Shown piece by piece: positions 5,527 to 60,816 of a stretch of 64,000 nucleotides of DNA. Made by a program: the position numbers and the translations under genes. Source of the DNA: an uncultured Eubacteriales bacterium (GTDB lineage Bacteria; Bacillota; Clostridia; Lachnospirales; Anaerotignaceae); contig URCD01000001.1 of assembly GCA_900546215.1 (NCBI GenBank), positions 15,540 through 79,539 of the forward strand, written 5' to 3'. Position 1 is the stretch's first letter. Each line of letters opens with the position of its first letter. The notes under the pieces are model-generated. The model made no database searches. It was not told the origin of the DNA and saw only the letters and a list, made by a program, of their open reading frames with translations.

Positions 5527-5541
5527 GGGGAGGTATGACAG

Positions 5542-7467: not shown

Positions 7468-7485
7468 TAAAGGATGGTGTTTCAA

Positions 7486-8652: not shown

Positions 8653-8708
8653 AAAATTTTTATAGAACCAAAACAATATTTTTATGCCGATAAATAAGGG
8701 ATTTTGTA

Positions 8709-8737
8709 TTGACAAAAATATTTTTGTAAAATATAAT
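8709..8737 (+). promoter_or_regulatory. Consensus sigma-A promoter (TTGACA-17-TATAAT) driving the nucleoside-transporter operon
   Basis: ttgaca at 8709-8714, an exact 17-nt spacer, tataat at 8732-8737. About 185-nt leader before the first CDS. Confidence 0.65.
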
Positions 8738-8922
8738 AATTAAAACTTTTATAAATGAGTAATTTGTGATATAATAAAATATTACGCATTTTTATAAAGG
8801 GCTATGAGTCGGTTAGATGACAATGACGTCGTTGCTTTTAAGTAACGGCGTTTTTTGCAAGTTGGACGCTGTTAATTATTGTGTCAAAGGGGCGCAATGA
8901 GGATATAGAAAGGGAGGATAAA

Positions 8923-10038: not shown

Positions 10039-10108
10039 TAAATATGAGATCACACAGATGTCATAGGGGTTCAACCTCTATGACATTTGTTTTAAGGAGG
10101 CCAGACAG

Positions 10109-13599: not shown

Positions 13600-13623
13600 T
13601 ATTTTACGGGAGGCAGATAATCA

Positions 13624-16750: not shown

Positions 16751-16761
16751 GAGGAATTATT

Positions 16762-17574: not shown

Positions 17575-17586
17575 GGAGGAAGCCCT

Positions 17587-32355: not shown

Positions 32356-32413
32356 TGTAAACCCTCCAAAAAAGTGTTATCCTTAGAATAATATAACGGT
32401 GAGGTGTAGGCGT

Positions 32414-33085
32414 ATGCTTTCAGAAATTTTAAATATTAAACCCGGGCTTACCTCAATTATAGGAAGCGGCGGTAAAACAACGCTTATGTACAGTCTTGCC
32501 AAAGAACTGTCAGCGTCAAAAAAGGTCGTTATCTGCACCTTTACAAAAATTTATAAGCCTGAACATATTATAACACTTACAGACCCATCAGAGGAAGATA
32601 TAAAAAATGCACTTTTGGCCAATAACTGTATATGTGTCGGAAAGTTATCCACAGAAGAAAAATTAACAATGCCGGATATTCCTGTGGAAATTTTGCTGAA
32701 ATACGCGGATTATGTAATTTCAGAGGCAGACGGGGCAAAGGGGCTGCCTTTAAAAGCCCATAGGCATTATGAGCCGGTTATCCACAGAAAACCTGTGAAT
32801 ACAATTCAAGTTCTGGGGATAAGTGGCATAAATAAAAAAATTAAGGATGTCTGCCATAGGCCTGAAACATATGCGGAAATAGCCGGAGCGTCAATAAACG
32901 ATAAAGTAACGCCTGAAATGGCCGCCCGTGTGGTCAAAAGGGAAGGTCTATGCGACACGCTTATAATAAACCAGGTGGAAAATGACGATAATATGAAGGA
33001 CGCGGAAAAAATTGCCGCTTATTTGGACATACCGGTTTTTGCCGGAGAAATAAGGAAAGGGGATTTGATATGCTTGCGATTATAA
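32414..33085 (+). CDS. yqeC: Selenium-dependent molybdenum hydroxylase accessory protein YqeC (P-loop protein)
   Basis: About 224 aa. N-terminal P-loop 'IGSGGKTTLMY'. Positioned next to yqeB and selD. ATG 32414 (RBS ggtgaggtg) is preferred over the GTG-extended ORF. Confidence 0.65.
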   Translation: MLSEILNIKPGLTSIIGSGGKTTLMYSLAKELSASKKVVICTFTKIYKPEHIITLTDPSEEDIKNALLANNCICVGKLSTEEKLTMPDIPVEILLKYADYVISEADGAKGLPLKAHRHYEPVIHRKPVNTIQVLGISGINKKIKDVCHRPETYAEIAGASINDKVTPEMAARVVKREGLCDTLIINQVENDDNMKDAEKIAAYLDIPVFAGEIRKGDLICLRL

Positions 33086-33855
33086 AAGGGGCTGGAGACA
33101 TCGCTTCAGGAATAGCACTCAGGCTCAGGCACGCTAAATTTGATGTTGTTATGACAGACTTGAAAAAGCCTACGGCAATCAGACGTACCGTCTGTTTTTC
33201 TCAGGCAATAGTAAACGGAGAAACGGCTGTGGAGGATGTTAAAGCCGAAAAAGCCGATAATACGGACGATATACAGGATATTATAAACAGGGGAAACATT
33301 GCGGTTATAGCCGATGCAGAGGGAGAGTGTATAAAAAAGCTTAAACCCTATTTTCTGATAGACGCTGTATTGGCAAAGAAAAACTTAGGAACGTCAATTG
33401 AGGACGCTCCGGTCGTTATAGGCGTGGGCCCAGGCTTTACCGCCGGTATTGACTGCGATGCTGTTATTGAAACCCAAAGGGGACACTATCTTGGCAGGGT
33501 TATATTAAAGGGAAGTGCTGCTGAGAATACGGGGGTTCCCGGAAATATAGGAGGATATACCACCGAAAGAATAATTAGGGCGGCAAAAGACGGTATTTTT
33601 TCACCCGTCTGCGCCATAGGCGATATTGTGGAGGCCGGTCAGACTGTGGCATATGTTGATGATGAGCCTGTTAAGAGCCAAATCGGCGGAGTGCTCAGAG
33701 GTATTCTGCCTAAGGGAACTCCTGTATTTAAAGGAATGAAAAGCGGCGACGTTGACCCGAGATGTAAAATTGAACACTGCTGGTGCGTATCAGACAAGGC
33801 ATTAGCTGTCGGCGGCGGGGTACTTGAGGCAATGCTTGCGCTGAAGGAGGATTGA
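33070..33855 (+). CDS. yqeB: Selenium-dependent molybdenum hydroxylase system protein YqeB (EF2563 family)
   Basis: 261 aa. 'IIKGAGDIASGIA' N-terminus is typical of the YqeB family. Overlaps the yqeC 3' end by 16 nt and the selD start. Confidence 0.65.
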   Translation: MLAIIKGAGDIASGIALRLRHAKFDVVMTDLKKPTAIRRTVCFSQAIVNGETAVEDVKAEKADNTDDIQDIINRGNIAVIADAEGECIKKLKPYFLIDAVLAKKNLGTSIEDAPVVIGVGPGFTAGIDCDAVIETQRGHYLGRVILKGSAAENTGVPGNIGGYTTERIIRAAKDGIFSPVCAIGDIVEAGQTVAYVDDEPVKSQIGGVLRGILPKGTPVFKGMKSGDVDPRCKIEHCWCVSDKALAVGGGVLEAMLALKED

Positions 33856-33857
33856 AA

Positions 33858-34892
33858 ATGGATGATATAAGGCTTACAAAGCTGGCTGACTGTGCTGGCT
33901 GCGGTGCAAAGGTAGGCGCCGGCGTGCTTGCAAAGCTTCTTGAGGATATAGAGGTGCTTGATGACCCAAACCTGCTGGTTGGATTTGATAAAAGCGACGA
34001 TGCATCAGTATATAAAATAAATAATGAGCAGGCCATTGTCCAGACTGTGGATTTCTTTCCTCCCATATGCGATGACCCATATATATTTGGACAGATTGCG
34101 GCTGCAAATGCCATGTCTGATATATACGCAATGGGCGGACAGCCTAAGCTTGCACTGAATATAATGGCTGTTCCAACGTCTATGAACAAGGAGCATGTCC
34201 ATGCAATCCTAAAGGGCGGATATGAGAAGGTTTACGAGGCCGGGGCGCTGATAACGGGAGGACATTCTATTTATGACAAGGAACCAAAATATGGTCTTTC
34301 AGTGACTGGCTTTGTACATCCGGATAAAATAATTACAAACAGCGGAGCAAGGGAAGGCGATGTGCTTATACTTACAAAGCCAATAGGAATCGGAATTATT
34401 ACAACAGCCGCTAAGGCTGACATGGTATCTGAGGAAGGCCTGCAATTTGTGTATTGCCTTATGTCAACGCTTAATAAGTCGGCGAGGGACATAATGGTCA
34501 AGTACAACGTGCATGCATGTACAGATGTGACAGGCTTCGGACTCATGGGGCATCTTTTGGAAATGGCGCAGGGTTCAGATAAAGCCGCTGTTGTTGATAC
34601 AGAAAATATAGATTATATAAATGAGGCAAAGTTTTTAGCACAAAGTGGTATACTGCCGGAGGGACTTTACCGAAACAGGAGCTACGCGGAAGGATTTGTT
34701 GAACCTGGAAATATAAAGCTTTCAGTGCAGGACATGCTGTTTGATCCCCAGACCTCAGGAGGACTGCTTATCGCGGTTTCTCCAGAGGATGCGGATATGC
34801 TGTTCAATGAGCTGAAGGGAAGGGTGCCAAGCGCCCAAAGGATAGGACATATAGAAAATTATAAGGGCGGAGCTAGGATTATTTTGAGATAA
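33858..34892 (+). CDS. selD: Selenide, water dikinase (selenophosphate synthetase), Cys-type
   Basis: 'DCAGCGAKVGAG' corresponds to the SelD GCGCK active-site loop, with Cys (not TGA) at the catalytic position. AIR-synthase-like fold motifs are present. RBS gaaggagg 7 nt upstream. Confidence 0.8.
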   Translation: MDDIRLTKLADCAGCGAKVGAGVLAKLLEDIEVLDDPNLLVGFDKSDDASVYKINNEQAIVQTVDFFPPICDDPYIFGQIAAANAMSDIYAMGGQPKLALNIMAVPTSMNKEHVHAILKGGYEKVYEAGALITGGHSIYDKEPKYGLSVTGFVHPDKIITNSGAREGDVLILTKPIGIGIITTAAKADMVSEEGLQFVYCLMSTLNKSARDIMVKYNVHACTDVTGFGLMGHLLEMAQGSDKAAVVDTENIDYINEAKFLAQSGILPEGLYRNRSYAEGFVEPGNIKLSVQDMLFDPQTSGGLLIAVSPEDADMLFNELKGRVPSAQRIGHIENYKGGARIILR

Positions 34893-35669: not shown

Positions 35670-35997
35670 CGCTGTATTCACGGCTTTATCTATAGCAGTA
35701 ATAGCTTTAACGACATGGCTGTGCCGTGCATTTCCTTTTATATTATTTTCGGGGAAACGTAATATACCGGAAACAATTTCCTACTTAGGAGGAGTGCTTC
35801 CGGCGGCTATTATGATAATTCTGGTAATATATTGTCTCAGAAATGTGGATCTTATAAATTATCCGCACGGGCTTGCGGAAATTGTTTCTATAGCCGTTAT
35901 TGTTTTTCTCCAATGGAAGAAGGGCAATACAATTCTTACCATAGTTGTGGGCACTGTTTTATATATGACTTTAATACGAACTGTATTTCCGATATAA
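35656..35997 (+). CDS. azlD: AzlD-family branched-chain amino acid exporter small subunit
   Basis: 113 aa hydrophobic protein overlapping the azlC end. Confidence 0.65.
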   Translation: MQMNDAVFTALSIAVIALTTWLCRAFPFILFSGKRNIPETISYLGGVLPAAIMIILVIYCLRNVDLINYPHGLAEIVSIAVIVFLQWKKGNTILTIVVGTVLYMTLIRTVFPI

Positions 35998-36031
35998 AAT
36001 GGCCGAAGCATAAGCTTCGGCCATTTTTTTA
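35996..36031. terminator. Bidirectional terminator (azlD / dehydrogenase convergent)
   Basis: aaatggccgaagc-ataa-gcttcggccattt followed by ttttttt. Confidence 0.7.
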
Positions 36032-36940
36032 GATTTCCAGCTTGCCAATGGTAACGGCTAGCTTCTCAGCTATAGTATCAAGCCTTGATTTTTGCTCGCC
36101 TATAAGCTGCGGCATTTCATAGCTTTTTATTCCATTGCATCCAACTGCCACAGGTACTCCGAAAGATACGCCGCTGTAGCCGTATTCTCCCTCAAGCACT
36201 GAGGAGCATTCAAGAACCTTGCCTGAGTCGGTCGCAACTGCCTCAATAAGCTCCTCAATGTTTATTGACGATGCCCAGCCTGATGTTCTTCCGCAGTCAA
36301 GGGCAGAAAACTGGACAAAAAAATTCGACGTAATGCTTTCAATTTCCTCTATCTGCTGGTCAGACAGGTTAAGAGGTTTTTTGCCGCATGTCATTTTATC
36401 ATAGAGATTTATCTGCCCATTGCCGTGCTCGCCTATACAGAAGCCGTCAAGCTCCTTGAAATCCCGTCCGGTAACCTTAGAGGCGGCCCACTTAAGGCGG
36501 TAGGTATCATTTCCGTTGAAACCTAAGATTTTTTTCCTGTCCCAGCCTAAAATTTTATATATTACATAATTAAAAATGTCGACAGGATTTGTAGCATTAA
36601 TGATTACGGCTTCTGAGCAATTGGCCTTTATCTGCTCGCAGATGGGCTTAACTATTTTCATATTATCACGGAGATATTCCATTCTGTCCTCAACCCTGCG
36701 TTCAGGAATGCTGGCGGTTATAAGAATTATGCCGCAGTCCGCCAAATCGCTGTAGCTTCCAAAGGAAATTTTTGTTTTAGAGGCGCTGTATACGGCCTGT
36801 CCCATATCCATTACGTGGTTTTTAACCAAATTTTCCTTTATATCCACCAGCTTTATTTCTTCCAGATAACCCTTCATCCCCGCGAGAAAAGCTGAAGTCG
36901 AGCCTAACAGCCCCGCACCTCCAATTACACCAAGTTTCAT
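36029..36940 (-). CDS. Lactate/malate dehydrogenase family NAD-dependent 2-hydroxyacid dehydrogenase
   Basis: 'MKLGVIGGAGLLGSTSAFLAGM' Rossmann motif, 'ITASIPERR' and a 'GEHGN' substrate/catalytic loop. Confidence 0.7.
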   Translation of the reverse strand: MKLGVIGGAGLLGSTSAFLAGMKGYLEEIKLVDIKENLVKNHVMDMGQAVYSASKTKISFGSYSDLADCGIILITASIPERRVEDRMEYLRDNMKIVKPICEQIKANCSEAVIINATNPVDIFNYVIYKILGWDRKKILGFNGNDTYRLKWAASKVTGRDFKELDGFCIGEHGNGQINLYDKMTCGKKPLNLSDQQIEEIESITSNFFVQFSALDCGRTSGWASSINIEELIEAVATDSGKVLECSSVLEGEYGYSGVSFGVPVAVGCNGIKSYEMPQLIGEQKSRLDTIAEKLAVTIGKLEI

Positions 36941-36955
36941 AGCTAAAACCTCCTT

Positions 36956-37597
36956 TTATAAAAGATTGATAATATTTCCTGACCATTCCATAAGCATTTT
37001 GGAAGAACCGTCAAAATCCTCCTTCCATTTTTCCTCAGCCAGCAGTTCAAGTACAGGCTTATCCTCACCCGTCAGCAGCGGAATAAGATCGGCATTTTTT
37101 TTGATATATTCCTTGTTTTCAAGATAATGTTTAGCTTTGATAACAAACGAAGCCTGTTTTAAAATTTCTCTGAGCGCATCAGGGCTCTTTTCGTGTACAG
37201 CGTTATGAACGCAGGCATGGTATATGTTGCAAGCGCCCATATGTACAAAGCGTCGTATGTCGTAATTGGCTATATATCCCCTTATCCAGTCAATACTGCC
37301 GTAAACTGCAGTTGTGTCATAATAAAACTGGAATAAATCGGTTCTGTCCCAATTGGCCAGCTCCTCGCGCCCAGATATAAAGCCGCATATTTTGTCCCTG
37401 CTTTCCAGACTGGATATGGCAGTTTCATATTTTTTTAAATCCTCATAGGAGAGCTTATCCAATACAACCACAACATCTATATCGCTGTCCGCAGTGGCTT
37501 CACCTCTGCCTTGGCTTCCCTGAATTCCAACAAATAACGTTCTTCCGGGAAAGGTCTGCAGCACCCTCTCGGCAAATCTGTTAAGCCATTCTTTCAT
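36956..37597 (-). CDS. Pol-beta-superfamily nucleotidyltransferase domain protein (ANT/KNTase-like fold)
   Basis: 'GIQGSQGRGEATADSDIDVVVVL' is the G[SG]...D.D nucleotidyltransferase motif, with a helical C-terminal domain. Start 37597 (GGAGGTAAGG RBS) is preferred. Confidence 0.6.
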   Translation of the reverse strand: MKEWLNRFAERVLQTFPGRTLFVGIQGSQGRGEATADSDIDVVVVLDKLSYEDLKKYETAISSLESRDKICGFISGREELANWDRTDLFQFYYDTTAVYGSIDWIRGYIANYDIRRFVHMGACNIYHACVHNAVHEKSPDALREILKQASFVIKAKHYLENKEYIKKNADLIPLLTGEDKPVLELLAEEKWKEDFDGSSKMLMEWSGNIINLL

Positions 37598-37654
37598 AGT
37601 CAACCTTACCTCCAAAATATACGGCAAAGCCGCAGTGTCTACTGCGGCTTATAT

Positions 37655-40606
37655 TTAAAGCAAATAACCGTACTCGTTTTTTACCGTTAAAATTATTGTC
37701 TCAATATTTTTGTCCAGTGTGTTGTTTTCAGAAAGGTCATAATCATTTACCTCTCCGTTTATGCGAACCTTATATTTGTTTTCTCCGAGAGGCAGAAATC
37801 CGTTGTTTTCACTGTCACGGAAGTCCTCTGCGCTGTTAAACAGCGTAAGCTTATCCTTATAGGGTGCGCTGTCATAGGGACAGAAGGTTTTGCAGTTTCC
37901 GCACTCGTTGCACATACGGTCAACATGCAGTATCTGTGCGCCCATTCCCTTTGGCTTAATAATGACGTTGGCCCTGTTGGGGCATACGTCTGCGCAGCAT
38001 TCGCACACAACATTGCAGGAAAGACATCTGTCACCCTCGCATGAGGAAGGCATTTTCAATATTCCCTTTTTCGCCGCGGCTGACTCCTCACATTCATGCG
38101 CGCAGTCGGGGATAACGGCTTCAATGGGTGCATTTGCCACAGCCTTTGCAAATTCTTTGGCATCGGCTATACACTCAACAACCGTAGAGGGCCCCCTAAG
38201 TGCGTCGCCTGCAGCATATACTCCGTCAATATTTGTTTTAAATTCGGGACGGCCTTTTTTGTTTACATCTATGCCCTGGGTTTTAAAGAAGTCTCCGTCA
38301 ACGCCCTCACCGACAGCGGCTATTACTGTGTCGGCATTTATATATATCAGCTCGTCTGTCTCAACGGGGCTTCTTCTTCCGCTTTCATCAGGGTCGCCCA
38401 ATACCATTTTTCTGGCAGTCAGTATGCCGTGGGACTGGCACACTGGAGCGGCAAGCTCAATAAATTCCACTCCGTCGTGTATAGCCAGCATAAGTTCCTC
38501 AGTGTCGGCCGGCATATATTTTTTTGTGCGCCTGTATACAATTGCCACATTTTCTACGCCATCTGCCCGCTTTGCGGCCCTTGCGGCGTCCATTGCCGTG
38601 TTTCCTCCGCCGATAACGGCCACGTTTTTACCAAGCTCAATATTTTTACCGGACTTTAAGTCTCTTAAAAATTCAATTACATTTAACACATTACCATCAA
38701 TATCAAGCTTTCCGGGCTTTTCAGCGCCAACACAGTAAAGTATATGAGTGTAGCCCTTGCCTTTAAGCTCAGAAAGTGAAGGGGCGGGAGTATTCAGTTT
38801 GATTTCAGCGCCCATTTTTTCAATGAGGTCCGTGTCCTTTTCTATAGATTCATCGCTTATTCTGAAGGCGGGTATTACATTCCTTACAATTCCGCCAAGC
38901 CTGGCTTCCTTCTCGTAGACTGTTGTCCTGATACCGCTTTTGCCTAAGAAGTATGCGGCCGCCATACCGGCCGGCCCTCCCCCTACAATAGCGGCCTTGG
39001 CCTTTGATACGGGTTCAGGGGCCTTTAAATTTTTCATTATCTCATCATAGCCGTTTTCCGCCGCCGTAAGCTTCTCCGCGCGTATCATTACAGGCTCTTC
39101 ATAGAAATTCCTTGTGCATTTGTCCATACAGTGATGGGCGCATATGGTTCCGGTTATGAAGGGCAGAGGGTTTTTATCAGTAATAACCTTAAGTGCGTCA
39201 GCATATTTTCCCTGCCTGCACAGCTCTATATATTCAGGGATATCCTGCCCAATTGGACAGCCGCCCTTGCAAGGCGCTGTGAAGCAGTCTGTAAGGGGAA
39301 CCTTTTTATCCAGCTTTCTTTTAGGCAGAGGCTTGATTGGCTTTATATGATGTATGTCAGATTTAGCTGATTCGGAAAGTTCAGATGTCTTTGCGCAGTC
39401 CACACCTGAAAACGGATTAAACGGACAGGCCTCAAGCTTTTGGGCAAGTTGTGTAAGCCTCTGGTAGCCTCCAGGCTTGAGTATTGTCGTAGCGACAGTT
39501 ATAGGCCATATCCCGGCTTCAAATAACTTATCTATGTTGAAATAATCAGCGCCGCCCGAATAGCTGATACGCATCTTTCCACCAAACTGGGCAGCAATTC
39601 GGTTTGCCATTTCAATAGTAAGCGGATAAAGTGCCTTGCCGCTCATATACATTTCCTCAGAAGGAAGCTCTCCTGCCTTTACGTCTACCGGGAATGTGTT
39701 TGAAAGCTTCAGTCCAAATTCCAAACCATTGTCATCTGCAAGCCTTTTAAGCCTTGTAAACATAGGTACAGCATCCTCATACTGCAAATCCTCGTTAAAA
39801 TGGTGCTCGTCAAAGGCAATGTAGTCATAGCCCATATCATCCAGGGTTTTTCTTGCATAGTCATAACCAAGAATTGTTGGATTGCATTTTACAAAGGTAT
39901 GCAGATGCTTTTCTGTAATCAGATAAGATGCTATGCGCTCAATTTCCTGCGGAGGACAGCCGTGCAGTGTGGATAAGGTAACGCTTGTGCATACTTTGGG
40001 CGTAATACTTTCTATATGTTCTGCTTCGGAAGGAAAATATTTTTTAAGAACTGACTTGTATTCATTCCACTGGGGAAGCCTTGAGGCGTCCTTAAGCCCT
40101 TCTATAAAATTATCAATTTTTTCACTCTTTATGCCTTCAAGGTCATAGCCTACGCTCATATTAAAAATAAACCCGTCAGATGAGCCAAGGCCAAATGCCT
40201 TTGAGAATACCTTAAGCGCAAGCCATGCCTTTACGTACTCGTCAAGCGCCTGCCAGACCAGAAGCTCGGTGGACCATTCGCAGTTGTAGCCTTCGTCCTC
40301 CGCCAGTATACACGGCCTTGCTATACACGCCGCAAGCTCCTCGCCGTCCATTATCTGTACTGTTTTAAGCTCGAAAAACCTGCTTCCGGCAAAATAGGCT
40401 GCGATTATGTTCTGCGCGAGCTGTGTGTTGGGGCCGGCCGCCGGGCCGAACGGCGTTTCCATGCTTTCTCCAAATATAGAAAGCGTTTTATTATCTTTTT
40501 TTATGTAGGGGCGCTGTACGCCAAACATTTTTCCGGTGCTATTGTATTCCGTTACCGCCCAGTTTATAAGCCTGTCAAAGGGAATGGGCGTCATTCGTTC
40601 ACTCAT
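37655..40606 (-). CDS. ygfK: YgfK-like large Fe-S flavoprotein (dihydropyrimidine-dehydrogenase-like TIM barrel + GltD-like FAD/NAD(P) domain + ferredoxin domain; 'putative selenate reductase subunit YgfK' family)
   Basis: 983 aa. GltD-like 'CKGGCPIGQDIPEYIELCRQGKYADALKV', dinucleotide fold 'AIVGGGPAGMAAAYFL', and C-terminal 4Fe-4S motifs 'CLSCNVVCECCADVCPN' and 'CNECGNCKTFCP'. Confidence 0.7.
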   Translation of the reverse strand: MSERMTPIPFDRLINWAVTEYNSTGKMFGVQRPYIKKDNKTLSIFGESMETPFGPAAGPNTQLAQNIIAAYFAGSRFFELKTVQIMDGEELAACIARPCILAEDEGYNCEWSTELLVWQALDEYVKAWLALKVFSKAFGLGSSDGFIFNMSVGYDLEGIKSEKIDNFIEGLKDASRLPQWNEYKSVLKKYFPSEAEHIESITPKVCTSVTLSTLHGCPPQEIERIASYLITEKHLHTFVKCNPTILGYDYARKTLDDMGYDYIAFDEHHFNEDLQYEDAVPMFTRLKRLADDNGLEFGLKLSNTFPVDVKAGELPSEEMYMSGKALYPLTIEMANRIAAQFGGKMRISYSGGADYFNIDKLFEAGIWPITVATTILKPGGYQRLTQLAQKLEACPFNPFSGVDCAKTSELSESAKSDIHHIKPIKPLPKRKLDKKVPLTDCFTAPCKGGCPIGQDIPEYIELCRQGKYADALKVITDKNPLPFITGTICAHHCMDKCTRNFYEEPVMIRAEKLTAAENGYDEIMKNLKAPEPVSKAKAAIVGGGPAGMAAAYFLGKSGIRTTVYEKEARLGGIVRNVIPAFRISDESIEKDTDLIEKMGAEIKLNTPAPSLSELKGKGYTHILYCVGAEKPGKLDIDGNVLNVIEFLRDLKSGKNIELGKNVAVIGGGNTAMDAARAAKRADGVENVAIVYRRTKKYMPADTEELMLAIHDGVEFIELAAPVCQSHGILTARKMVLGDPDESGRRSPVETDELIYINADTVIAAVGEGVDGDFFKTQGIDVNKKGRPEFKTNIDGVYAAGDALRGPSTVVECIADAKEFAKAVANAPIEAVIPDCAHECEESAAAKKGILKMPSSCEGDRCLSCNVVCECCADVCPNRANVIIKPKGMGAQILHVDRMCNECGNCKTFCPYDSAPYKDKLTLFNSAEDFRDSENNGFLPLGENKYKVRINGEVNDYDLSENNTLDKNIETIILTVKNEYGYLL

Positions 40607-40668
40607 TGGATTTCATCTCCTTGGGTATTAAGTTTGCAGCCGTTATTCGGATTTTCTGAAAGGGTTTA

Positions 40669-42006
40669 TCAGAGGCTGTAGTTTATATTCTTCCAAAGCT
40701 TTTTGGCTGTCTCAAGAATTTTAGAGTTTATCTCTTCCTCATCTATATCAATAAGCTGTCTGTTATGCATAAGTATTTTTCCGTTTGCAACAGTTGTAAG
40801 GCACTGCCTGCCGTTCATTCCGAATATCATGTGACCGTCAATGTTGTCGGCTGAAAAAGGAGTGTACGGCTTATAGTCCATAACTATAATGTCCGCCGCG
40901 GCTCCCGACTTTAAAACGCCAAGCGGTTCGTCAAAATATCTGGCGCATATTTTTGCGTTGTTCGTAAACAGCATTCCTGTAGCTTCAGCCCAGCCGACAT
41001 TAGGCATTTTTGCGTTATGTCGCTGGATTGCGAGCGCCGCCTTAAGGCTTTCAAGCATATCGTGGGTATAGGCGTCTGTACCAAGGCCGATAAGTATTCC
41101 CCTGTTGTAAAGATTAAGTACTGGAGAACAGCCAACGGCGTTGCCCATATTGGATTCAGGATTATTCACCACCATAGTGTCGCTTTCTCTGATTATGTTC
41201 ATTTCCCTGTCGTTTACATGTATACAGTGGCCAAGTATTGTTTTGGGGCCGAGTATATTCATGTCCCTAAGCCTTTCAACAGGACGTTTTCTGTGTTTTT
41301 CCCATGTATCCTGTACGTCGTTTATGCCCTCGGATACATGTATATGAAAGCCTGTCATACCGTTATTCGCCTCAACGCATTTTTCAAGCGTTCTATCCGA
41401 AAGGGTAAACAGCGCATGCAGTCCAAACATAGCCTTCAGCATGCAGTCTGGCTCGTCTGCCGTATGCTTTATAAAGTCGTAGTTTTCCTTAATGGCCTGA
41501 TTTGCTTTTACCTCGCCGTCCCTGTCGCTTACCTCATAGCAAAGACAGCTTCTTATGCCCATTTCCTTAGCAACGTCCGCAATTTCAAAAAGTGAGGATG
41601 GAATATATCCATAGCTTGCGTGATGGTCAAATATGGTGGTAACGCCATTTTTAATGCATTCTATGTAGGTTGCATATGCCGAGGCTCTGGTGCCCTCCAA
41701 ATCCAGCTTTCTGTCGATATTCCACCACATTCCCTCCAGTATTTCATAGAAATTTCTTGGGTTATAGCCGTTTATTGAAAGACCCCTTGCGAGGGCGCTG
41801 TATATATGAGTATGAGTGTTGATAAAGGCAGGCATTATTACGTTGCCCTCCGCGTCTATTATCTCTGCGTTGGGATATTTCAGCTTAAGGGTAAGGTCGT
41901 CGCCGACTTCCACAATTTTATTGCCCTCAACAGCAACTCCGCCGTCCTCGTAATATGGGTTATCACTGTCTCGGGTAATAACTTTTCCGTTTGTAATCAG
42001 ATACAT
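40669..42006 (-). CDS. ssnA: SsnA-like amidohydrolase (chlorohydrolase/aminohydrolase family associated with Se-dependent Mo hydroxylases)
   Basis: Amidohydrolase metal ligands 'INTHTHIY', 'HASYG' and 'GTDA'. Start 42006 (GGGAGGAA RBS) is preferred over the 26-codon N-terminal extension. Confidence 0.65.
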   Translation of the reverse strand: MYLITNGKVITRDSDNPYYEDGGVAVEGNKIVEVGDDLTLKLKYPNAEIIDAEGNVIMPAFINTHTHIYSALARGLSINGYNPRNFYEILEGMWWNIDRKLDLEGTRASAYATYIECIKNGVTTIFDHHASYGYIPSSLFEIADVAKEMGIRSCLCYEVSDRDGEVKANQAIKENYDFIKHTADEPDCMLKAMFGLHALFTLSDRTLEKCVEANNGMTGFHIHVSEGINDVQDTWEKHRKRPVERLRDMNILGPKTILGHCIHVNDREMNIIRESDTMVVNNPESNMGNAVGCSPVLNLYNRGILIGLGTDAYTHDMLESLKAALAIQRHNAKMPNVGWAEATGMLFTNNAKICARYFDEPLGVLKSGAAADIIVMDYKPYTPFSADNIDGHMIFGMNGRQCLTTVANGKILMHNRQLIDIDEEEINSKILETAKKLWKNINYSL

Positions 42007-42186: not shown

Positions 42187-42657
42187 ATGAAGCTGCTGTT
42201 TAAGCAAAGACTTTTTACATGGTTTGACAGTTACGATATTTATAATGAAAACGGAGACACACTTTACACCGTTGAGGGCCAGTTTAGCTGGGGACATTGC
42301 CTGCATATTCTGGACAGAAACGGCACGCACGTCGCAACGGTGCAGGAAAAGGTTTTTAGGCTGCTTCCGAAATTTGAGCTGTACATAGGAGATAACCTAA
42401 TCGGCTGCATTGAAAAGGAATTTACGTTTTTTAAACCATCATACAATATAGATTTTAATGGCTGGAGAGTAGAGGGCGAAATATTTGAATGGGATTATAA
42501 CATAATTAACCCTCAGGAGGAAATTGTGGCAGTAATAACCAAGGAGCTTTTCCGCTTTACTGATACATACGTTATTGAAGTAAAAAACAGCGGAGATGCT
42601 TTATATGCCCTTATGCTGACGCTTGCCATAGACGCGGAGAAATGCTCAAGGAATTAA
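42187..42657 (+). CDS. LURP-one-related / DUF567 (tubby-like fold) family protein
   Basis: 156 aa. The 'LFTWFDSYDIYNENGDTLYTVEGQ' pattern is typical of the YxjI/LURP1 family. RBS aggagg. Confidence 0.5.
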   Translation: MKLLFKQRLFTWFDSYDIYNENGDTLYTVEGQFSWGHCLHILDRNGTHVATVQEKVFRLLPKFELYIGDNLIGCIEKEFTFFKPSYNIDFNGWRVEGEIFEWDYNIINPQEEIVAVITKELFRFTDTYVIEVKNSGDALYALMLTLAIDAEKCSRN

Positions 42658-42693: not shown

Positions 42694-43725
42694 ATGATAA
42701 GATTTAACAACGACTACAGCGAGGTGGGACATGAGCGCATACTTAAAAAGCTCGCCGATATAAGCGGTACTCAGGTATGCGGCTATGGCGAGGATGAGTA
42801 TTGCAGGGAGGCTGCCGATATAATTAGGAACCTTATCGGAAAGGCCGATGCGGACGTACATTTTCTTGTCGGAGGCACACAGGCAAACCTTACGGTTATC
42901 TCGGCGGCTTTAAGACCCCACCAGTGCGCTCTATGTGCCCAAACGGGACATATAAACGTGCATGAGACAGGCGCGATAGAGGCAGTGGGACATAAATGCA
43001 TGGCAATTAAAACGAAGGACGGGAAGCTTACAGCGGAAATGGTGCGAAGGGTGCACAAAGACCATTGGGCAGACGGTTCGCATGAGCACATAGCGCAGCC
43101 GAAGCTTGTTTATATATCCAATTCAACTGAAATCGGAACAATATACAAAAAGGCTGAGCTGGAGGAGCTTTACAGGGCGTGCAGGGAATGCGGGCTTTAT
43201 CTGTTTATGGACGGCGCAAGGCTTGGCTACGCGCTGGCAAGCAGCGAAAATGATTTGGATTTAAAGACAATCGCCGACAACTGCGACGTTTTTTACATAG
43301 GAGGAACAAAGGGCGGAGCAATGTTCGGAGAGGCCGTTGTTATTATGAATGAGGCTTTAAAGGAAGATTTCAGGTATATAATTAAGCAGAAGGGCGGAAT
43401 GCTTGCAAAGGGCTGGCTTCTGGGCATCCAGTTCAGTGAGCTTTTAAGGGACGGCCTTTATTTTGAGCTGGCGCAGCATGCCGACAGGCTGGCTGATAAA
43501 ATTAAAGATGCCGTTAAAGAGGCCGGTTATCCGTTTTATTCTGAAAGTCCCACAAATCAGCAGTTTGTTATTTTCCCCGACAGCCTTATTGAGAAGCTCT
43601 CGGAGAAATATGTGCTTTCATATCAGGAGAGAATTGATGAAAGCCACAGCGCTGTCAGGATATGTACAAGCTGGGCGACAAAAGAGGAAAATGTGGATAT
43701 GCTGATTAAGGATATAATGGGTTGA
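42694..43725 (+). CDS. Low-specificity L-threonine aldolase (beta-eliminating lyase family, PLP-dependent)
   Basis: 343 aa. 'IRFNNDYSEVGHERIL', and 'GGTKGGAMFGEAVV' fits the PLP lysine region of threonine aldolases. RBS ggaggt. Confidence 0.7.
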   Translation: MIRFNNDYSEVGHERILKKLADISGTQVCGYGEDEYCREAADIIRNLIGKADADVHFLVGGTQANLTVISAALRPHQCALCAQTGHINVHETGAIEAVGHKCMAIKTKDGKLTAEMVRRVHKDHWADGSHEHIAQPKLVYISNSTEIGTIYKKAELEELYRACRECGLYLFMDGARLGYALASSENDLDLKTIADNCDVFYIGGTKGGAMFGEAVVIMNEALKEDFRYIIKQKGGMLAKGWLLGIQFSELLRDGLYFELAQHADRLADKIKDAVKEAGYPFYSESPTNQQFVIFPDSLIEKLSEKYVLSYQERIDESHSAVRICTSWATKEENVDMLIKDIMG

Positions 43726-44961: not shown

Positions 44962-45063
44962 AATTGGGCGGCGGCATAAACATTGACTTCTTTAACCATT
45001 GTGTTACTATTAAATGTAATCTGCTTTTAAATAAATCAGTAAATGGATATAAAGGAGACTGCA

Positions 45064-46335
45064 ATGCCAGACATTATAACAAAATTTGGACAGCATATTA
45101 ATAAAGAAATTGTAAAGAACCCTGATATGGCAAGAAAAGAGCTTCTTTTAGGCTATAGAACATTTAACCTCAAAATGAGATACGCTCCTGACAAACGGCT
45201 TTCACCTGCCAGAAAATATCTGGGCAAGGTGTGCATGGACGAGCATATAAAGTCCTTTGCGCATGCTGATAACTCGGCATTGGTAAGTGTGTTTCTTCCA
45301 TGTGAAATAATACACGCCTTTGGCCTTAACACAATATTTGCCGAGGGCTTTGCCGGATATATGACGGGAGCCTACGCTGAAAAGGCCTTTGTTGAGGCCG
45401 CGGAGGCTGAAGGAATAGCCGAAACCTACTGCTCCTACCATAAAATTCTGATGGGCGCGGCATTTACCCAGGTACTGCCGAAGCCTAAGTTTATTATAAA
45501 TACGTCAATTGTATGCGACGCGAATAATCTTACATTCAGGGCCCTGGCCGACTATTATGGTGTTCCGCAGTTTTACGTTGACGTACCGACAGCGGCAGAC
45601 GAGGAAAGCGTTAAATATGTCGCAGAGCAGCTTAAAGAGATGACAGCCTTTATTGAACGACAGACGGGTAAAAAGCTCGACGAATCCGTCCTTAAAGCGT
45701 CCGTAGCAAGGACAAGGGACTCTATAAACAACTTTAAAGAATGTCTTGAGCTTAAAAAGAACACATATTTAGCCAACGATATTACAAGCGAGATGTATGA
45801 GGTTTTTGCAACGCACCCGCTTTTTGGAACAGAGGAAACCCTTAAATATTCGCAGATGCTTGTTGAGGATTTAAAAAATGCGGAGCCTAAAAGGGGAATA
45901 AGGCTGCTGTGGATGCATACGATACCTTATTTTCAGGAGCCGCTCAGGGACAGGCTTAATTTCAATGAAAAGTGCCAGATTATAAGCTGCGACATGAACT
46001 TTGAAAACCTTGTTGAGACAGACCCCGAAAAGCCCTACGAGAGCATGGCGCGGCGTATTGTTATGAGCAGCTTTAACGGTTCTGCAGAAAACAGGATAAA
46101 TAAGGCCGCAGAGATAGCTGAAAGCCTTGGCGCCGACGGCGTAATTTATTTTTGCCATTGGGGCTGCAAGCAGACGATGGGCGCGGCGGTAAACGCGAAG
46201 AAAAAGCTGGAGGAAAGGGGTTTCCCAACGCTTGTGTTAAACGGCGACGGAGGGGACAGAAGAAATACCAGCGACGGGCAGATACTTACAAGGCTTGACG
46301 CTTTTATAGAAATGCTGGAGGATATGAAAAAATGA
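45064..46335 (+). CDS. 2-Hydroxyacyl-CoA dehydratase family protein (HgdA/HadB/FldB-like component D subunit)
   Basis: 'CSYHKI', 'VCDANN' and 'GVIYFCHWGCKQT' are the HGD-D family cysteine-ligand motifs. Start at the internal Met after the AAAGGAGA RBS. Coordinates are uncertain by +/-1 nt: my reading of the sequence text places the RBS-adjacent ATG one base later than the ORF track implies. Confidence 0.65.
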   Translation: MPDIITKFGQHINKEIVKNPDMARKELLLGYRTFNLKMRYAPDKRLSPARKYLGKVCMDEHIKSFAHADNSALVSVFLPCEIIHAFGLNTIFAEGFAGYMTGAYAEKAFVEAAEAEGIAETYCSYHKILMGAAFTQVLPKPKFIINTSIVCDANNLTFRALADYYGVPQFYVDVPTAADEESVKYVAEQLKEMTAFIERQTGKKLDESVLKASVARTRDSINNFKECLELKKNTYLANDITSEMYEVFATHPLFGTEETLKYSQMLVEDLKNAEPKRGIRLLWMHTIPYFQEPLRDRLNFNEKCQIISCDMNFENLVETDPEKPYESMARRIVMSSFNGSAENRINKAAEIAESLGADGVIYFCHWGCKQTMGAAVNAKKKLEERGFPTLVLNGDGGDRRNTSDGQILTRLDAFIEMLEDMKK

Positions 46336-47981
46336 TGTATTATGTTTGCAAATATACTCCCCTGGAGCTCATGGAAGGGCTTGGCGCGCAGATGATGAGG
46401 CTGGAGCCCCTGCCAAGTAATTTTGACATCGCAGAAAGTCTCGGTCATCCCAATATGTGCGGCTACGGCAAGGCTGTTATTGAGGAAATATACGCCAAGG
46501 ATATTAAGGAAATTCTGCTGGTGGACTGCTGCGACGTTATCCGCAGGGTTTATGATATACTTGTGGAAAGCGGCCGTATGGACTTTGTCTATCTGCTTGA
46601 GCTTCCACATAAAACCGGGTTGGCTGAAACAGAGCTGTTTAAAATGAATTTGAGAAAGCTGGCAAAGGCCTACAGTGCCTACAGCGGGAATTCTTTCGAT
46701 GTAAAGCGCGCAATGTCAGCCTTTACCGAAACAAAGAAAAATCCTGATGAAAAGCATATAAGCATACTTGGCGCACATGGAGGAAAGTACCTTTATAAGA
46801 CTATAAGCGGTAAATTTTCAATGCCGGTGCATGACGATACATGTACGGGAAACAGGTCAATTGACGTACCGGGAACGCCTGAGAATATAGATGAATTTAT
46901 AGACGGATATGCTCCGGGACTGCTTAGGCAGACGCCCTGCATGCGTATGTATGATAACAGCACAAGGGGAGAAACGGCAAAGGGCGCCGCGGGAATAATA
47001 TATCATACAATGAAGTTCTGTGATTATTACAGCTTTGAATACATGGGCATTAAAAATAAGACGGGTGTTCCGCTCCTGAAAATAGAGACTGACTGTACCA
47101 GCCAGAGCGAAGGCCAGCTTTCAACTCGATTGGAGGCCTTTGCGGAAACTATAGATACAGGCGTGAAACGGAGGAGACCAGACATGAAGACAGACGGAAA
47201 AATATATACTGCGGGAATTGACAGCGGCTCCACAAGTACCGACGCGGTTATAATGGACAGGGATAAAAACATAATTGGAAAGGCGATTGTACCGACTGGT
47301 GCGGGCGCCACAAACGGCGCTAAAAAGGCTTTGGCAGCGGCGCTTGAGGAAGCGGGAATAAATGAGGACAGCCTTACGCTAACTGTAACAACAGGCTACG
47401 GAAGGGAAAACATAAGCTTTGGGAATTCGTCCGTGACAGAAATAACTTGCCATGCCAAGGGAGCGCATTACCTTGACCCTTTGGCAAGAACGGTAATAGA
47501 CATTGGGGGTCAGGACTCAAAGGCAATAAGAATTGATGAAAACGGCTCTGTTCTTAGCTTTGTAATGAATGATAAATGCGCAGCTGGAACCGGACGGTTC
47601 CTTGATATGATGGCGAGGACAATGGAACTTACGCTGGATGAAATGGGAGAGCTTGGACTGCATTGGAAAAACGATGTTGTTATTTCAAATATGTGTACGG
47701 TTTTTGCAGAGTCTGAGGTTGTCTCACTTGTGGCTCAGGATACGCCTCCGGCTGATATTATTCACGGGCTTAATAATTCGGTCGCGGGAAAAACAGTATC
47801 TCTGGTAAAGAGACTTGGCGGCGAAAAAGGGTATATAATGACCGGCGGAGTGGCTAAAAATAAGGGAATTGTTGAGGCGCTTGAAGAAAAACTTGGTGAG
47901 AAGGTATTTATATCAGAAAATGCCCAGCTTTGCGGGGCAATAGGCGCGGCGCTTATCGGAATGGAATCATTGACTGAATAG
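46332..47981 (+). CDS. Fusion protein: 2-hydroxyacyl-CoA dehydratase small-subunit-like domain (N-terminal) + BadF/BadG/BcrA/BcrD-type ATPase activase (HgdC-like, C-terminal)
   Basis: N-terminal ~280 aa has HGD-D-like Cys clusters ('MCGYGK', 'VDCCDV'). The C-terminal domain has 'IYTAGIDSGSTSTDAVIMD' (ASKHA phosphate-1 motif) and 'DIGGQDSKAI', typical of dehydratase activators. ATGATG overlap with the upstream gene. Confidence 0.65.
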   Translation: MMYYVCKYTPLELMEGLGAQMMRLEPLPSNFDIAESLGHPNMCGYGKAVIEEIYAKDIKEILLVDCCDVIRRVYDILVESGRMDFVYLLELPHKTGLAETELFKMNLRKLAKAYSAYSGNSFDVKRAMSAFTETKKNPDEKHISILGAHGGKYLYKTISGKFSMPVHDDTCTGNRSIDVPGTPENIDEFIDGYAPGLLRQTPCMRMYDNSTRGETAKGAAGIIYHTMKFCDYYSFEYMGIKNKTGVPLLKIETDCTSQSEGQLSTRLEAFAETIDTGVKRRRPDMKTDGKIYTAGIDSGSTSTDAVIMDRDKNIIGKAIVPTGAGATNGAKKALAAALEEAGINEDSLTLTVTTGYGRENISFGNSSVTEITCHAKGAHYLDPLARTVIDIGGQDSKAIRIDENGSVLSFVMNDKCAAGTGRFLDMMARTMELTLDEMGELGLHWKNDVVISNMCTVFAESEVVSLVAQDTPPADIIHGLNNSVAGKTVSLVKRLGGEKGYIMTGGVAKNKGIVEALEEKLGEKVFISENAQLCGAIGAALIGMESLTE

Positions 47982-54340: not shown

Positions 54341-54382
54341 CCACGATAGAATATTAATATCTGCTTTGGGCGACCAAAGCTC

Positions 54383-54612
54383 TGATAGAGGCGCAGAAAA
54401 AATCAGTATTGCGGAACAATGGCGGGCGGCCGTTCTGCTTGAAAGGGTTTTCTGCCGAAGCTTGTTTGTTCTGCCCGGGACAAGCTGGCTGGGACGATGC
54501 ATAACATGCAGCGTACTGTCACTTATGTGGAGAGCTATCATAAAACCTTATGATTTGTTTTATCAGTGCCGAATCTTCACTTGAGCAGAGGAATATTCGG
54601 CACTTTTTATTT
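54383..54612 (+). promoter_or_regulatory. Lysine riboswitch (L-box) aptamer plus intrinsic terminator expression platform
   Basis: L-box consensus blocks are present in order: GATAGAGGCGC, AGTATTGC, GAAAGGG, GCCGAAG, ACTGTCA, TGGAGAGCTATC. They are followed by the terminator gtgccgaat...attcggcac plus a T-run (54563-54612), 30 nt before the transporter start. Confidence 0.75.
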
Positions 54613-54646
54613 GTATTAAAATTTTACATTAAAGGAAGGTATGAAC

Positions 54647-55540
54647 ATGAAGAAAAAGTTATTTTCAGTAGCAGCATTAGCGATGGCTTGTACAGTCGCA
54701 TTGGCAGGCTGCTCATCAAAATCAAACGAAACATCAAATGAAGACTCAGGAAAACAGCAGACAGCGGCTGACGGTGAAGGCGCGGCAGCAGACAACGTAC
54801 TCACAGTAGCAATGGAATGCGGATACGCTCCATATAACTGGACACAGCCGACAGACCAGAACGGAGCAGTTCAGATTAAGGACAGCCCCGACTATGCTTA
54901 CGGATATGACGTAATGATGGCAAAGCATATTGCTGAGGAGCTTGGCATGGAGCTTGAAATCGTTAAGCTTGACTGGGATTCACTTGTACCAGCAGTTCAG
55001 TCGGGAACAGTAGACTGTGTTATCGCAGGACAGTCAATCACATCTGAAAGACTTGAAATGGTAGACTTTACAGAGCCTTACTACTATGCTTCAATCGTTA
55101 CGCTTACAAAGGCAGACAGCCCCTACGCAGACGCTGCAAGTGTAGCTGACCTTGCCGGCGCAACATGTACTTCACAGCAGAACACAATATGGTATAACGT
55201 TTGCCTCCCTCAGATTCCCGATGCAAACATTCTTCCTGCACAGGAATCAGCTCCGGCTATGCTTGTTGCGCTTGACGCAGGCAAATGCGACATCGTTGTA
55301 ACAGACCAGCCTACAGGGCTTGCGGCTACAGTAGCATATCCTGACTTCAAGCTTCTTGACTTTACAGGCACAGAGGGCGAATTTGAAGTATCAGATGAAG
55401 AAATCAATATCGGTATCTCTCTTCAGAAGGGCAATACAGAGCTTCTTGACAAAATCAACGGCGTACTTTCCACTATGACACCTGATGACTATGTTCAGCT
55501 GATGAACGAGGCTATATCTGTTCAGCCCCTCAGCGAGTAA
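54647..55540 (+). CDS. Amino-acid ABC transporter substrate-binding lipoprotein (probably lysine-specific, given the riboswitch)
   Basis: Lipobox 'LAGCSS' and a family-3 SBP fold pattern. Start 54647 (aaggaagg, 7-nt spacer). Confidence 0.75.
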   Translation: MKKKLFSVAALAMACTVALAGCSSKSNETSNEDSGKQQTAADGEGAAADNVLTVAMECGYAPYNWTQPTDQNGAVQIKDSPDYAYGYDVMMAKHIAEELGMELEIVKLDWDSLVPAVQSGTVDCVIAGQSITSERLEMVDFTEPYYYASIVTLTKADSPYADAASVADLAGATCTSQQNTIWYNVCLPQIPDANILPAQESAPAMLVALDAGKCDIVVTDQPTGLAATVAYPDFKLLDFTGTEGEFEVSDEEINIGISLQKGNTELLDKINGVLSTMTPDDYVQLMNEAISVQPLSE

Positions 55541-55580
55541 TTTATAATATTTTGCGCCAGACAGAAAGGAGAGAGCTAAA

Positions 55581-56402
55581 ATGCCCGCAACATTCGGAGA
55601 ACGAGTATTGTACATCTGGGAGCGCTACAGCGGATCCTTTCTGCGCGGCGCCGGAAATACAATGCTTATTGCTCTGATATCAACCTTAATAGGCTGTATT
55701 ATCGGATTTATTGTAGGTATTATCCAGACAATACCCACTGACAGAAAAAAGAACCCAATCAAATGGTTTTTCGTAGGCTTAATAAAGTTTATACTGAACG
55801 TTTATGTCGAGGTGTTCAGAGGAACGCCAATGATGGCGCAGGCCATGTTCATTTACTTTGGCTCCGCAGTCCTGTTTAATATTAATATGGGAATGTGGCA
55901 GGCCGCGTTCTTCATTGTTTCCATAAATACCGGAGCGTATATGGCGGAGACGGTCAGAGGCGGAATACTCTCAATTGACCCCGGTCAGACTGAGGGTGCG
56001 AAGGCTATAGGCATGACTCATTTTCAGACAATGGTTAACGTAATTCTTCCACAGGCTCTGAGGAATATTATGCCTCAGATAGGAAATAACCTTATAATCA
56101 ATATTAAAGATACCTGTGTTCTTTCAGTAATAGGAATTGTAGAGCTTTTCTATACCACAAAGGGTATTGCCGGAGCGCTTTATACTTATTTTGAAGCATT
56201 TGCAATCACAATGGTAATCTATTTCATACTTACATTCGCATGCTCAAGAATACTGCGTTTTTGGGAAAACAGGATGGACGGTCCGGATAACTTCGACTTG
56301 GCCACAACCGATACGCTTGCGCATACAAGCGGAATGTACAGCTATAATAAAAAGGTATCTAAGGTTGGAAACCTTAATAACGACAGCAGGGAGGGAAGGT
56401 AA
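55581..56402 (+). CDS. Amino-acid ABC transporter permease (HisM/GlnP family)
   Basis: Multi-TM with the EAA-like loop '[23 protein letters not shown]'. Confidence 0.8.
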
Positions 56403-57145
56403 TGGAGGATAATCATGTATTCCAGATAAACCATTTAGGCAAGACCTTCGGTGCGAACGTCGTTTTAAAGGATATAGACTTTACAGTAGACCACGGCGAC
56501 GTCACATGTATAATTGGCGCGTCGGGCTCAGGAAAATCGACTCTTCTCAGATGTATGAATCTTCTTGAAACTCCGACAAGCGGCGAGATACTTTTCCACG
56601 GCAAGCCCATAACAGGCAAAAACTTTGACCAGTGCTCCTACCGTGCCAAGGTTGGAATGGTATTCCAAAGCTTTAATCTTTTCAGTAACATGACCGTACT
56701 TGAAAACTGTATGGTAGGTGTTACAAAGGTTTTGAAAAGAAGCAAGGAAGAGGCACGCCAGTCAGCTATTTATTATCTTGAGAAAGTAGGCATGGCACCG
56801 TATATAAATGCTAAGCCAAGACAGCTTTCAGGCGGACAGAAACAGCGTGTTGCAATTGCGCGCGCCCTCGCAATGAAACCTGAGGTAATTCTCTTTGACG
56901 AGCCGACATCGGCGCTTGACCCGCAGATGGTTGGTGAGGTTCTTGCAGTTATAAGAACTCTTGCTGAGGAAGGCTTTACGATGATAATTGTAACCCATGA
57001 GATGGCCTTTGCCAGAGACGTTTCCAGCAACGTTGTGTTTATGGCAGACGGAGTTATATGCGAAAAGGGAAGCCCTGAGGAAATATTTGAAAATCCAAAG
57101 GATGAAAAGATGAAGGAATTCCTTTCAAGGTTTAGAAATTCATAA
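56402..57145 (+). CDS. Amino-acid ABC transporter ATP-binding protein (GlnQ-like)
   Basis: Walker A 'GASGSGKST', signature '[15 protein letters not shown]', Walker B '[11 protein letters not shown]'. Confidence 0.85.
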
Positions 57146-60797: not shown

Positions 60798-60816
60798 AAC
60801 TTGGAGGACACCAAAG

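Follow-up and report, generated by a model that had tools for sequence, protein, structure and literature searches.

Gut anaerobes remove host urate by way of 2,8-dioxopurine, and the pathway and its gene cluster were described in two 2025 studies (PMC12507026; bioRxiv 10.1101/2025.04.24.650524). Urate is reduced to 2,8-dioxopurine by a Mo/Se hydroxylase, the purine ring is then reduced by YgfK, an NAD(P)H:2,8-dioxopurine reductase, and opened by SsnA, a coupled hydrolase, and HyuA, YgeW/YqeA, YgeY and YgeX take the SsnA product to pyruvate, ammonia and ATP; the published pathway is complete without any nucleotidylation step (PMC12507026; bioRxiv 10.1101/2025.04.24.650524). The E. coli genes are ordered xdhD-ygfM-ygfK-ssnA-hyuA-ygeW-yqeA-ygeY-ygeX, and variants occur in Clostridium sporogenes and C. 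difficile (PMC12507026; bioRxiv 10.1101/2025.04.24.650524). Four electrons are consumed per urate (PMC12507026); the E. coli YgfK was found to use NADPH and not NADH (Liu et al., bioRxiv 10.1101/2025.04.24.650524), whereas in the other study NAD(P)H works (PMC12507026). Gut isolates turn labelled urate into lactate, acetate and butyrate. Here we analyse a 64,000-nucleotide stretch of contig URCD01000001.1 from an uncultured Eubacteriales bacterium (hereafter the window), in which ssnA and ygfK continue into a gene for a nucleotidyltransferase (NTase) and a gene for a protein of the lactate dehydrogenase (LDH)/malate dehydrogenase (MDH) superfamily, and are flanked by a divergent gene for a pyridoxal-phosphate (PLP) enzyme. 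The locus is a modest, lineage-specific new variant of the well-described cluster, and we consider it probable that it combines the known ssnA-ygfK core with an accessory dehydrogenase and PLP enzyme, and with an NTase that was inserted as a bystander.

The four co-oriented genes lie on the minus strand, ssnA at 40669-42006, ygfK at 37655-40606, the NTase gene at 36956-37597 and the dehydrogenase gene at 36029-36940, with intergenic gaps of 62, 57 and 15 nt, and the PLP-enzyme gene lies on the plus strand at 42694-43725. An earlier note, made from the letters of the window and their open reading frames, had described the four genes together with the 57- and 15-nt gaps, and all of these coordinates were confirmed. 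The gene order is identical on 24 of 24 contigs read for the source species, and three of the operon proteins carry the consecutive accessions MDY4082147-49 in a gut metagenome-assembled genome of Candidatus Metalachnospira.

The identity of the first two genes is clear. SsnA (445 aa, from an ATG that is also chosen by gene callers), the amidohydrolase that acts on reduced 2,8-dioxopurine to open its ring, scored 656.7 bits against the whole-protein hidden Markov model NF005540 (cut-off 444) and 578.4 bits against TIGR03314 (cut-off 455.5), and the 983-aa YgfK, an Fe-S flavoprotein in which the Pfam domains Fer4_20 and Pyr_redox_2 were found, scored 1340.8 bits against TIGR03315 (cut-off 835.3) with residues 2-983 covered. 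Together the two genes form the module by which the purine ring is reductively dearomatised and opened in the anaerobic 2,8-dioxopurine (urate) pathway; the view in the earlier note that their reactions are not established is outdated, as both were shown in 2025 (PMC12507026; bioRxiv 10.1101/2025.04.24.650524). The window thus shares with the published cluster an ssnA gene adjoining ygfK, both above their equivalog cut-offs, and it also contains a Se-dependent xanthine dehydrogenase (XDH) at 479-3070 (TIGR03311, 1364 bits), an XdhA-type XDH with FAD and 2Fe-2S subunits at 3244-6908 and the yqeC-yqeB-selD genes of the labile selenium cofactor at 32399-34892, which indicates that the upper half of the pathway is present. 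Unlike the published cluster, the window has no hyuA, ygeW, yqeA, ygeY or ygeX in the 64 kb searched. What it has in addition are the LDH-family, threonine-aldolase-like, NTase and LOR-domain genes; no lactate/malate dehydrogenase, aldolase or nucleotidyltransferase is mentioned for any cluster variant in either paper, nor is a LOR-domain gene (PMC12507026; bioRxiv 10.1101/2025.04.24.650524).

Loci with homologues of the dehydrogenase were gathered by exact look-up and a metagenome scan and were then searched with the window proteins. The homologues split into two groups, one of 69-91% identity and one of 56% identity or less, and linkage was counted in the 12 loci that carry a homologue of at least 70% identity and have enough flanking sequence. 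In all 12 the dehydrogenase gene is inside an ssnA-ygfK cluster. Six loci (L089, L090, L094, L098, L099 and L100) have the order ssnA, ygfK, dehydrogenase on one strand (layout A), and in the other six (L086, L087, L088, L095, L096 and L167) ssnA and ygfK run in one direction and the PLP-enzyme gene diverges from them and is directly followed by the dehydrogenase gene (layout B), an arrangement that is obtained by inverting, in layout A, the stretch that runs from the PLP-enzyme gene to ygfK. The dehydrogenase gene is in either case found 3' of a co-directional cluster gene at a gap of less than 50 nt. The PLP enzyme, a threonine-aldolase-like protein (PF01212) that scored 58 bits against the LtaE profile (cut-off 312), has its gene beside ssnA in 11 related loci; in the twelfth, L094, the sequence stops short of the position. 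The nearest ygfK lineages beyond this group have clusters of the Oscillibacter type; in Oscillibacter hominis (YgfK 66% identical) and in another lineage (68%) ssnA-ygfK is present and both the dehydrogenase and the PLP enzyme are absent.

Judged by these gene orders, the dehydrogenase and the PLP enzyme appear to be conserved, lineage-specific accessories of ssnA-ygfK in a lineage related to Ca. Metalachnospira. The gene orders support the earlier note in placing the dehydrogenase with ssnA-ygfK, and its statement that the NTase and the dehydrogenase are not part of the described cluster holds for the published clusters, but the dehydrogenase proves to be a regular neighbour in this lineage. 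The PLP enzyme, which is absent from the published urate clusters, had not been flagged. A different explanation for the linkage would be that a housekeeping lactate or malate dehydrogenase came to lie beside ssnA-ygfK through inherited gene order and has no purine role. In favour of this, the linkage is limited to one lineage (YgfK at least 71% identical), synteny in that lineage extends to the SelD-YqeB-YqeC, sigma factor and HGD-D genes, and other ygfK clusters, including the published ones, are without the dehydrogenase. On the other hand, simple inheritance of gene order does not readily account for a gene that keeps its short distance and shared direction to a cluster gene in both layouts despite the neighbouring inversion, and the sequence of the protein and the company of its paralogues, described below, also speak against it. 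We regard the housekeeping explanation as unlikely, though it keeps some weight.

The 303-aa dehydrogenase scored 98.8 bits against Ldh_1_N and 25.5 bits against Ldh_1_C, both over the Pfam gathering scores, and it aligned over its full length to solved LDH and MDH structures with E values of 5e-39 to 1e-34. It has the Rossmann fold and catalytic domain in common with the Haloferax MDH (4BGU), the Bacillus anthracis MDH (3TL2) and the Lactobacillus LDH (1EZ4). Residues R86, D145, R148 and H172, which correspond to Arg109, Asp168, Arg171 and His195, are invariant in its subfamily, as is the glycine-rich NAD motif at G7-G13 (GxGxxG), and D33 is present at the acidic position of NAD preference. 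With both domains, the catalytic residues and the NAD motif in place, the protein belongs to the LDH/MDH superfamily and is predicted to be an NAD-dependent L-2-hydroxyacid dehydrogenase of a divergent subfamily. Substrate specificity in the superfamily is associated with position 102, which is Gln in LDHs and Arg in MDHs. Unlike either, the window protein has a glutamate, Glu80, that aligns without gaps with Arg102 of 4BGU and 3TL2. This unusual residue is part of a conserved P79-E80-R81 loop, in which P79-E80 are at least 90% conserved in the subfamily, and R81 may substitute functionally for Arg102. The protein also remained under every NCBIfam LDH/MDH cut-off, with 180.8 bits against the L-lactate dehydrogenase model TIGR01771 (cut-off 303.55) and 181.9 bits against the malate dehydrogenase model NF004863 (cut-off 283). 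The glutamate and the low equivalog scores both argue against a housekeeping lactate or malate dehydrogenase.

The more distant paralogues (33-56% identity) adjoin a four-subunit 2-oxoacid:ferredoxin oxidoreductase (OFOR) in 25 loci, and these OFOR loci often also contain genes for an acyl kinase, a phosphotransacylase, a lactate-permease-family transporter and an IclR regulator. The paralogue loci include L091, L093, L103, L108-L118, L120, L138 and L157. Paralogues from the IclR-regulated OFOR operons (L091, L093, L115 and others) are of the same LDH subfamily and have the P-E-R loop and the catalytic residues; unlike the window dehydrogenase, they have no ssnA or ygfK nearby. The layout of these operons looks like a catabolic route from a 2-hydroxy acid through a 2-oxo acid and an acyl-CoA to ATP, and one that looks undescribed. 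The paralogues are enzymes dedicated to catabolic operons and not housekeeping ones, which is a further point against the housekeeping explanation.

In light of these observations, we propose that the dehydrogenase would be co-transcribed with ygfK in layout A and with the PLP enzyme in layout B, and that its most likely reaction is the NAD(H)-dependent interconversion of a small 2-oxo acid with the corresponding 2-hydroxy acid, pyruvate and lactate being the leading candidates. Since the pathway ends in pyruvate and takes up four electrons per urate, and since label from urate appears in lactate, acetate and butyrate, an NAD(H)-linked terminal step between pyruvate and lactate, or between close analogues of these, is the most economical reading, and such a step would tie the four-electron urate pathway to the redox balance of the cell. 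The enzyme could act in either direction: it could drain pyruvate to lactate or, with a 2-hydroxy acid as donor, supply the reductive steps with electrons, as the earlier note had proposed and as we find plausible. A more elaborate possibility is that the Glu-102 dehydrogenase works together with the PLP enzyme in a terminal branch not described so far, in which the PLP enzyme would replace YgeX and free a 2-oxo acid from a C3 intermediate bearing an amino or ureido group, and this 2-oxo acid, whose substituent may be positively charged or polar, would be the substrate of the dehydrogenase, or else that the dehydrogenase oxidises lactate and so feeds electrons to urate reduction in the way that formate does in E. 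coli; we hold this to be quite improbable. About 23 kb from the dehydrogenase gene, at 59490-62223 on the plus strand, a homologue of LarA (lactate-racemase family) is followed by a sodium:solute symporter, a pair that may bear on 2-hydroxyacid metabolism.

The distribution of the NTase is of a very different kind. Its family comprises more than 3,600 sequence clusters spread over several phyla, and a linkage scan with one genome per species returned 80 loci, with homologues of 44-53% identity from Clostridia, Fibrobacter, Bacteroidaceae, Treponema, Fusobacterium, Sumerlaeota, Anaerolineaceae and the archaeon Methanolobus. The 80 loci were queried with the window's YgfK, SsnA, dehydrogenase, PLP enzyme, SelD, YqeB, YqeC and AzlCD. 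In 79 of them there was no ygfK, ssnA, dehydrogenase or other query match within 8 kb, and the only locus with any match, L006, in which YgfK and the dehydrogenase are nearby, has an NTase 92% identical to that of the window and is therefore from the window's own lineage. When the neighbouring open reading frames of the NTase loci were clustered, no family reached more than 10 of the 80, and no recurrent partner was found. Linkage of the NTase to ssnA or ygfK across genomes thus amounts to one locus in 80, and that one is of the same lineage. From the opposite side, the NTase is absent from all 12 related ssnA-ygfK loci, six of layout A and six of layout B, and likewise from two more distant ssnA-ygfK clusters. 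In the six layout-A loci the ygfK stop is followed by a spacer of 37-46 nt with a ribosome-binding site and then by the dehydrogenase start, with no NTase between them.

The lack of linkage in 79 of 80 loci and the 12 sister clusters without the gene identify the NTase as a lineage-specific insertion, which would have entered between ygfK and the dehydrogenase gene in an ancestor of the species group and appears not to be part of the purine system; a single gain in the window lineage is the parsimonious reading. The ratio of nonsynonymous to synonymous substitution (dN/dS) between the window and L006 is 0.10 for the NTase, at a dS of 0.41 (the ratios for YgfK and the dehydrogenase are 0.08 and 0.03), from which it follows that the NTase was in place before the two lineages split and has been selected; by this measure the gene is under purifying selection and not decaying. 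A foreign base composition was considered and discarded, as the GC content of the NTase gene (0.42) and that of its third codon positions (GC3, 0.43) are close to those of its neighbours (GC 0.44-0.46, GC3 0.47-0.48) and give no clear signal of foreign origin, and no target-site duplication was seen on inspecting the junctions of the insertion.

These data bear directly on the idea that all four genes are one functional unit, in which the NTase would have been recruited to adenylylate an intermediate or a cofactor, or to regulate YgfK or the dehydrogenase. Its position within the operon at gaps of 57 and 15 nt, with a ribosome-binding site of its own, would fit such a role, and so would an arrangement that is fixed on the 24 species contigs and in L006 and a purifying selection comparable to that on YgfK. 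However, linkage is lacking in 79 of 80 genomes, purine-related neighbours are found nowhere in the NTase family, the twelve sister clusters do without the gene, and the published pathway does without nucleotidylation, and we therefore judge a single four-gene unit to be very improbable. Of what the earlier note proposed, the membership of the dehydrogenase is supported in this lineage and so is the fallback that the NTase is an unrelated gene, similar to the aminoglycoside nucleotidyltransferases (ANTs), that merely sits here; the service of the NTase to the purine pathway is not, as nothing links it to the pathway. The conservation of gene order, which the note had suggested to check in related genomes, accordingly divides, with the dehydrogenase linked in 12 of 12 loci and the NTase in one of 80.

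The insertion is accompanied by a further element that the earlier note had not described. Directly 3' of the ygfK stop, at 37627-37650 on the minus strand, there is a hairpin with a 10-bp stem, AAGCCGCAGU-AGAC-ACUGCGGCUU, followed by UUUGCCGUAUAUUUU, an interrupted U-tract (fold energy -22.2 kcal/mol, z = -2.9). The hairpin is kept in L006 and is absent from the six uninterrupted loci that lack the NTase, which is consistent with its having arrived with the NTase insertion or having been gained later. Owing to the interrupted U-tract it may act as a leaky terminator; possibly it is that, or a part of the inserted segment. The 57-nt gap contains a sole promoter-like site (37641-37614, 9/12 matches), which was rejected as an independent promoter of the NTase and dehydrogenase genes because transcription would start inside the NTase ribosome-binding site, and the promoter-like sites of the region as a whole are only in modest excess (21, against a mean of 15.3 and a standard deviation of 3.1 in shuffles). 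A separate promoter between ygfK and the NTase, which the earlier note had named as evidence against its operon, was therefore not credibly found in the gap, and expression of the NTase and the dehydrogenase by read-through is inferred, so that the NTase is now probably transcribed in this way. Control by a riboswitch or leader was also considered, and a whole-window Rfam scan gave only a distant lysine riboswitch (54378-54545). At its end, the operon and the convergent azlCD genes share the bidirectional intrinsic terminator that the earlier note had reported; it is present, with bounds of 35996-36027 here, between the convergent dehydrogenase and AzlD genes, and has a 14-bp stem with 7 G-C pairs, a 4-nt loop, and an A-rich stretch on one side and a T-rich one on the other.

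What the NTase does can be approached from its fold. The 213-aa protein scored 33.6 bits against PF01909 (cut-off 21), with the match confined to the first 65 residues, and PDB profile matches were to the N-terminal 60 residues only. The pol-beta-type motif seen by the earlier note is present as G27-S28, ten residues and D39-x-D41, and is invariant across the family, in which the strongly conserved motifs are an N-terminal GxQGSxxRxE...SDID, followed by CGFISG and CNIYHxCxHNxxHEK. An AlphaFold (AF2) model built from 25 family members had a predicted local distance difference test score (pLDDT) of 94.4 and a predicted template-modelling score (pTM) of 0.87. The best Foldseek matches of this model were ANT(4')-Ia, AAD(9) and AadA (probability 1.00, E 2e-6 to 2e-4, template-modelling (TM) scores 0.5-0.6), and the model has the two-domain ANT fold. 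Weaker matches were Hailong HalB (TM ~0.5), LinB and GlnE, and MNT antitoxins matched the N-terminal domain only. In the structural comparison that the earlier note had suggested, the ANT(4') type is thus the nearest, whereas LinB is weaker, MNT fits in its N-terminal part only and GlnE is poor. With ANT(4')-Ia (1KNY, 6UN8), AAD(9) (6XZ0) and the ANT(3'')(9) enzyme AadA (5G4A) the NTase shares a two-domain build, an N-terminal pol-beta fold with the GS...DxD motif and a C-terminal helical bundle; unlike them, it is ~40 residues shorter, superposes with a root-mean-square deviation of 5-7 Å at 10-14% identity, matches no antimicrobial resistance profile and has its own conserved Cys/His-rich C-terminal motif. 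On sequence and model, the protein would be an ANT-type small-molecule nucleotidyltransferase that falls in no characterised family.

Several more specific assignments were tried for the NTase and rejected. An MNT antitoxin of an MNT-HEPN type VII toxin-antitoxin system (MntA) is not supported by the sole NCBIfam match, MntA_antitoxin (24.2 bits, cut-off 60), and the gene is flanked by ygfK and the dehydrogenase gene, with no recurrent partner in the 80 loci. A GlnE-like adenylyltransferase is a poor structural match (TM 0.47/0.25). For an anti-phage nucleotidyltransferase (CBASS cyclase or Hailong HalB), the PADLOC matches cover residues 4-64 only at 33 bits or less, and there is no conserved neighbour.

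A resistance enzyme of the ANT/Lnu type, acting on aminoglycosides or lincosamides and present in the operon by chance, deserves more consideration. The structural neighbours and the intact GS...DxD motif are those of such enzymes, and the patchy spread of the family across phyla, with accessory genes around it that differ from locus to locus and include those for MATE efflux and acetyltransferases, is also in keeping with resistance. Against this stand the low identity to the solved ANTs, the lack of a match to any NCBIfam resistance family, and a C-terminal CNIYHxCxHNxxHEK motif that was not seen aligned in the ANT matches. A plasmid-borne resistance gene was rejected, in that 72,556 plasmids gave one weak match (37% identity), on a Subdoligranulum plasmid, and this near-absence counts against resistance as a whole. 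The hosts are strict anaerobes and hence intrinsically insensitive to aminoglycosides, which makes another natural substrate probable for the NTase. A role in resistance is for these reasons unlikely, though not negligible, and the NTase most likely nucleotidylates some small molecule outside purine breakdown.

Other genes around the cluster also vary. A LOR/LURP-one-related gene (PF04525; 156 aa, 42187-42657, plus strand) lies between ssnA and the PLP-enzyme gene in the window lineage only; it has no match in the 12 related clusters and so constitutes a second lineage-specific insertion in the cluster. In L166, from another lineage, ssnA and ygfK are separated by a small cytidine/dCMP-deaminase-family gene, with a DUF6198 gene 3' of ygfK (9555-9968 and 12959-13624), and in L088 a DUF6198 gene (8918-9580) is found 3' of the dehydrogenase gene, which suggests that positions around ygfK are prone to acquiring small genes. 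Farther out, 45043-47981 (plus strand) encodes an HGD-D/double-cubane-type pair, the second member of which is fused to an acyl-CoA-dehydratase activase domain, and the pair is kept beside the cluster in L086 and L089. The lysine riboswitch mentioned above (plus strand, 94 bits) precedes an amino-acid ABC transporter operon (54641-57145). Between the XDH genes and a UvrD helicase, 7474-18393 (plus strand) carries a mix of purine and acyl-CoA genes, namely an enolase-superfamily acid-sugar-dehydratase-like gene, a Bmp-type nucleoside ABC transporter, an ADP-forming acyl-CoA ligase, adenosine deaminase and two enoyl-CoA hydratases.

Several points weigh against our reading of a known core with accessory dehydrogenase and PLP enzyme and an inserted NTase. 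The linkage of the dehydrogenase is confined to one synteny-preserving lineage, which limits the weight of the association, and inherited gene order may explain part of it. Given Glu80 and the LDH/MDH scores under the cut-offs, the substrate may be neither pyruvate nor oxaloacetate, and the NADPH-only E. coli YgfK (Liu et al.) weakens a simple NADH-supply model. No convincing promoter was found for the NTase and dehydrogenase genes, and the hairpin downstream of ygfK could terminate a good share of the transcripts. Finally, the NTase is retained in the operon under selection, which leaves room for its recruitment to a local role.

Taken together, the locus bears on how gut anaerobes remove host urate, and hence on gout. 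For the Clostridia, two questions that it addresses are the source of the four reducing equivalents and the fate of the pyruvate or C3 end product, and the association of ssnA-ygfK with a dehydrogenase gene and a PLP-enzyme gene in an abundant gut lineage offers a testable lead on both. The NTase is a case for caution, in that a tight operon position did not mean shared function, and it belongs to a large, uncharacterised ANT-fold family in anaerobes.

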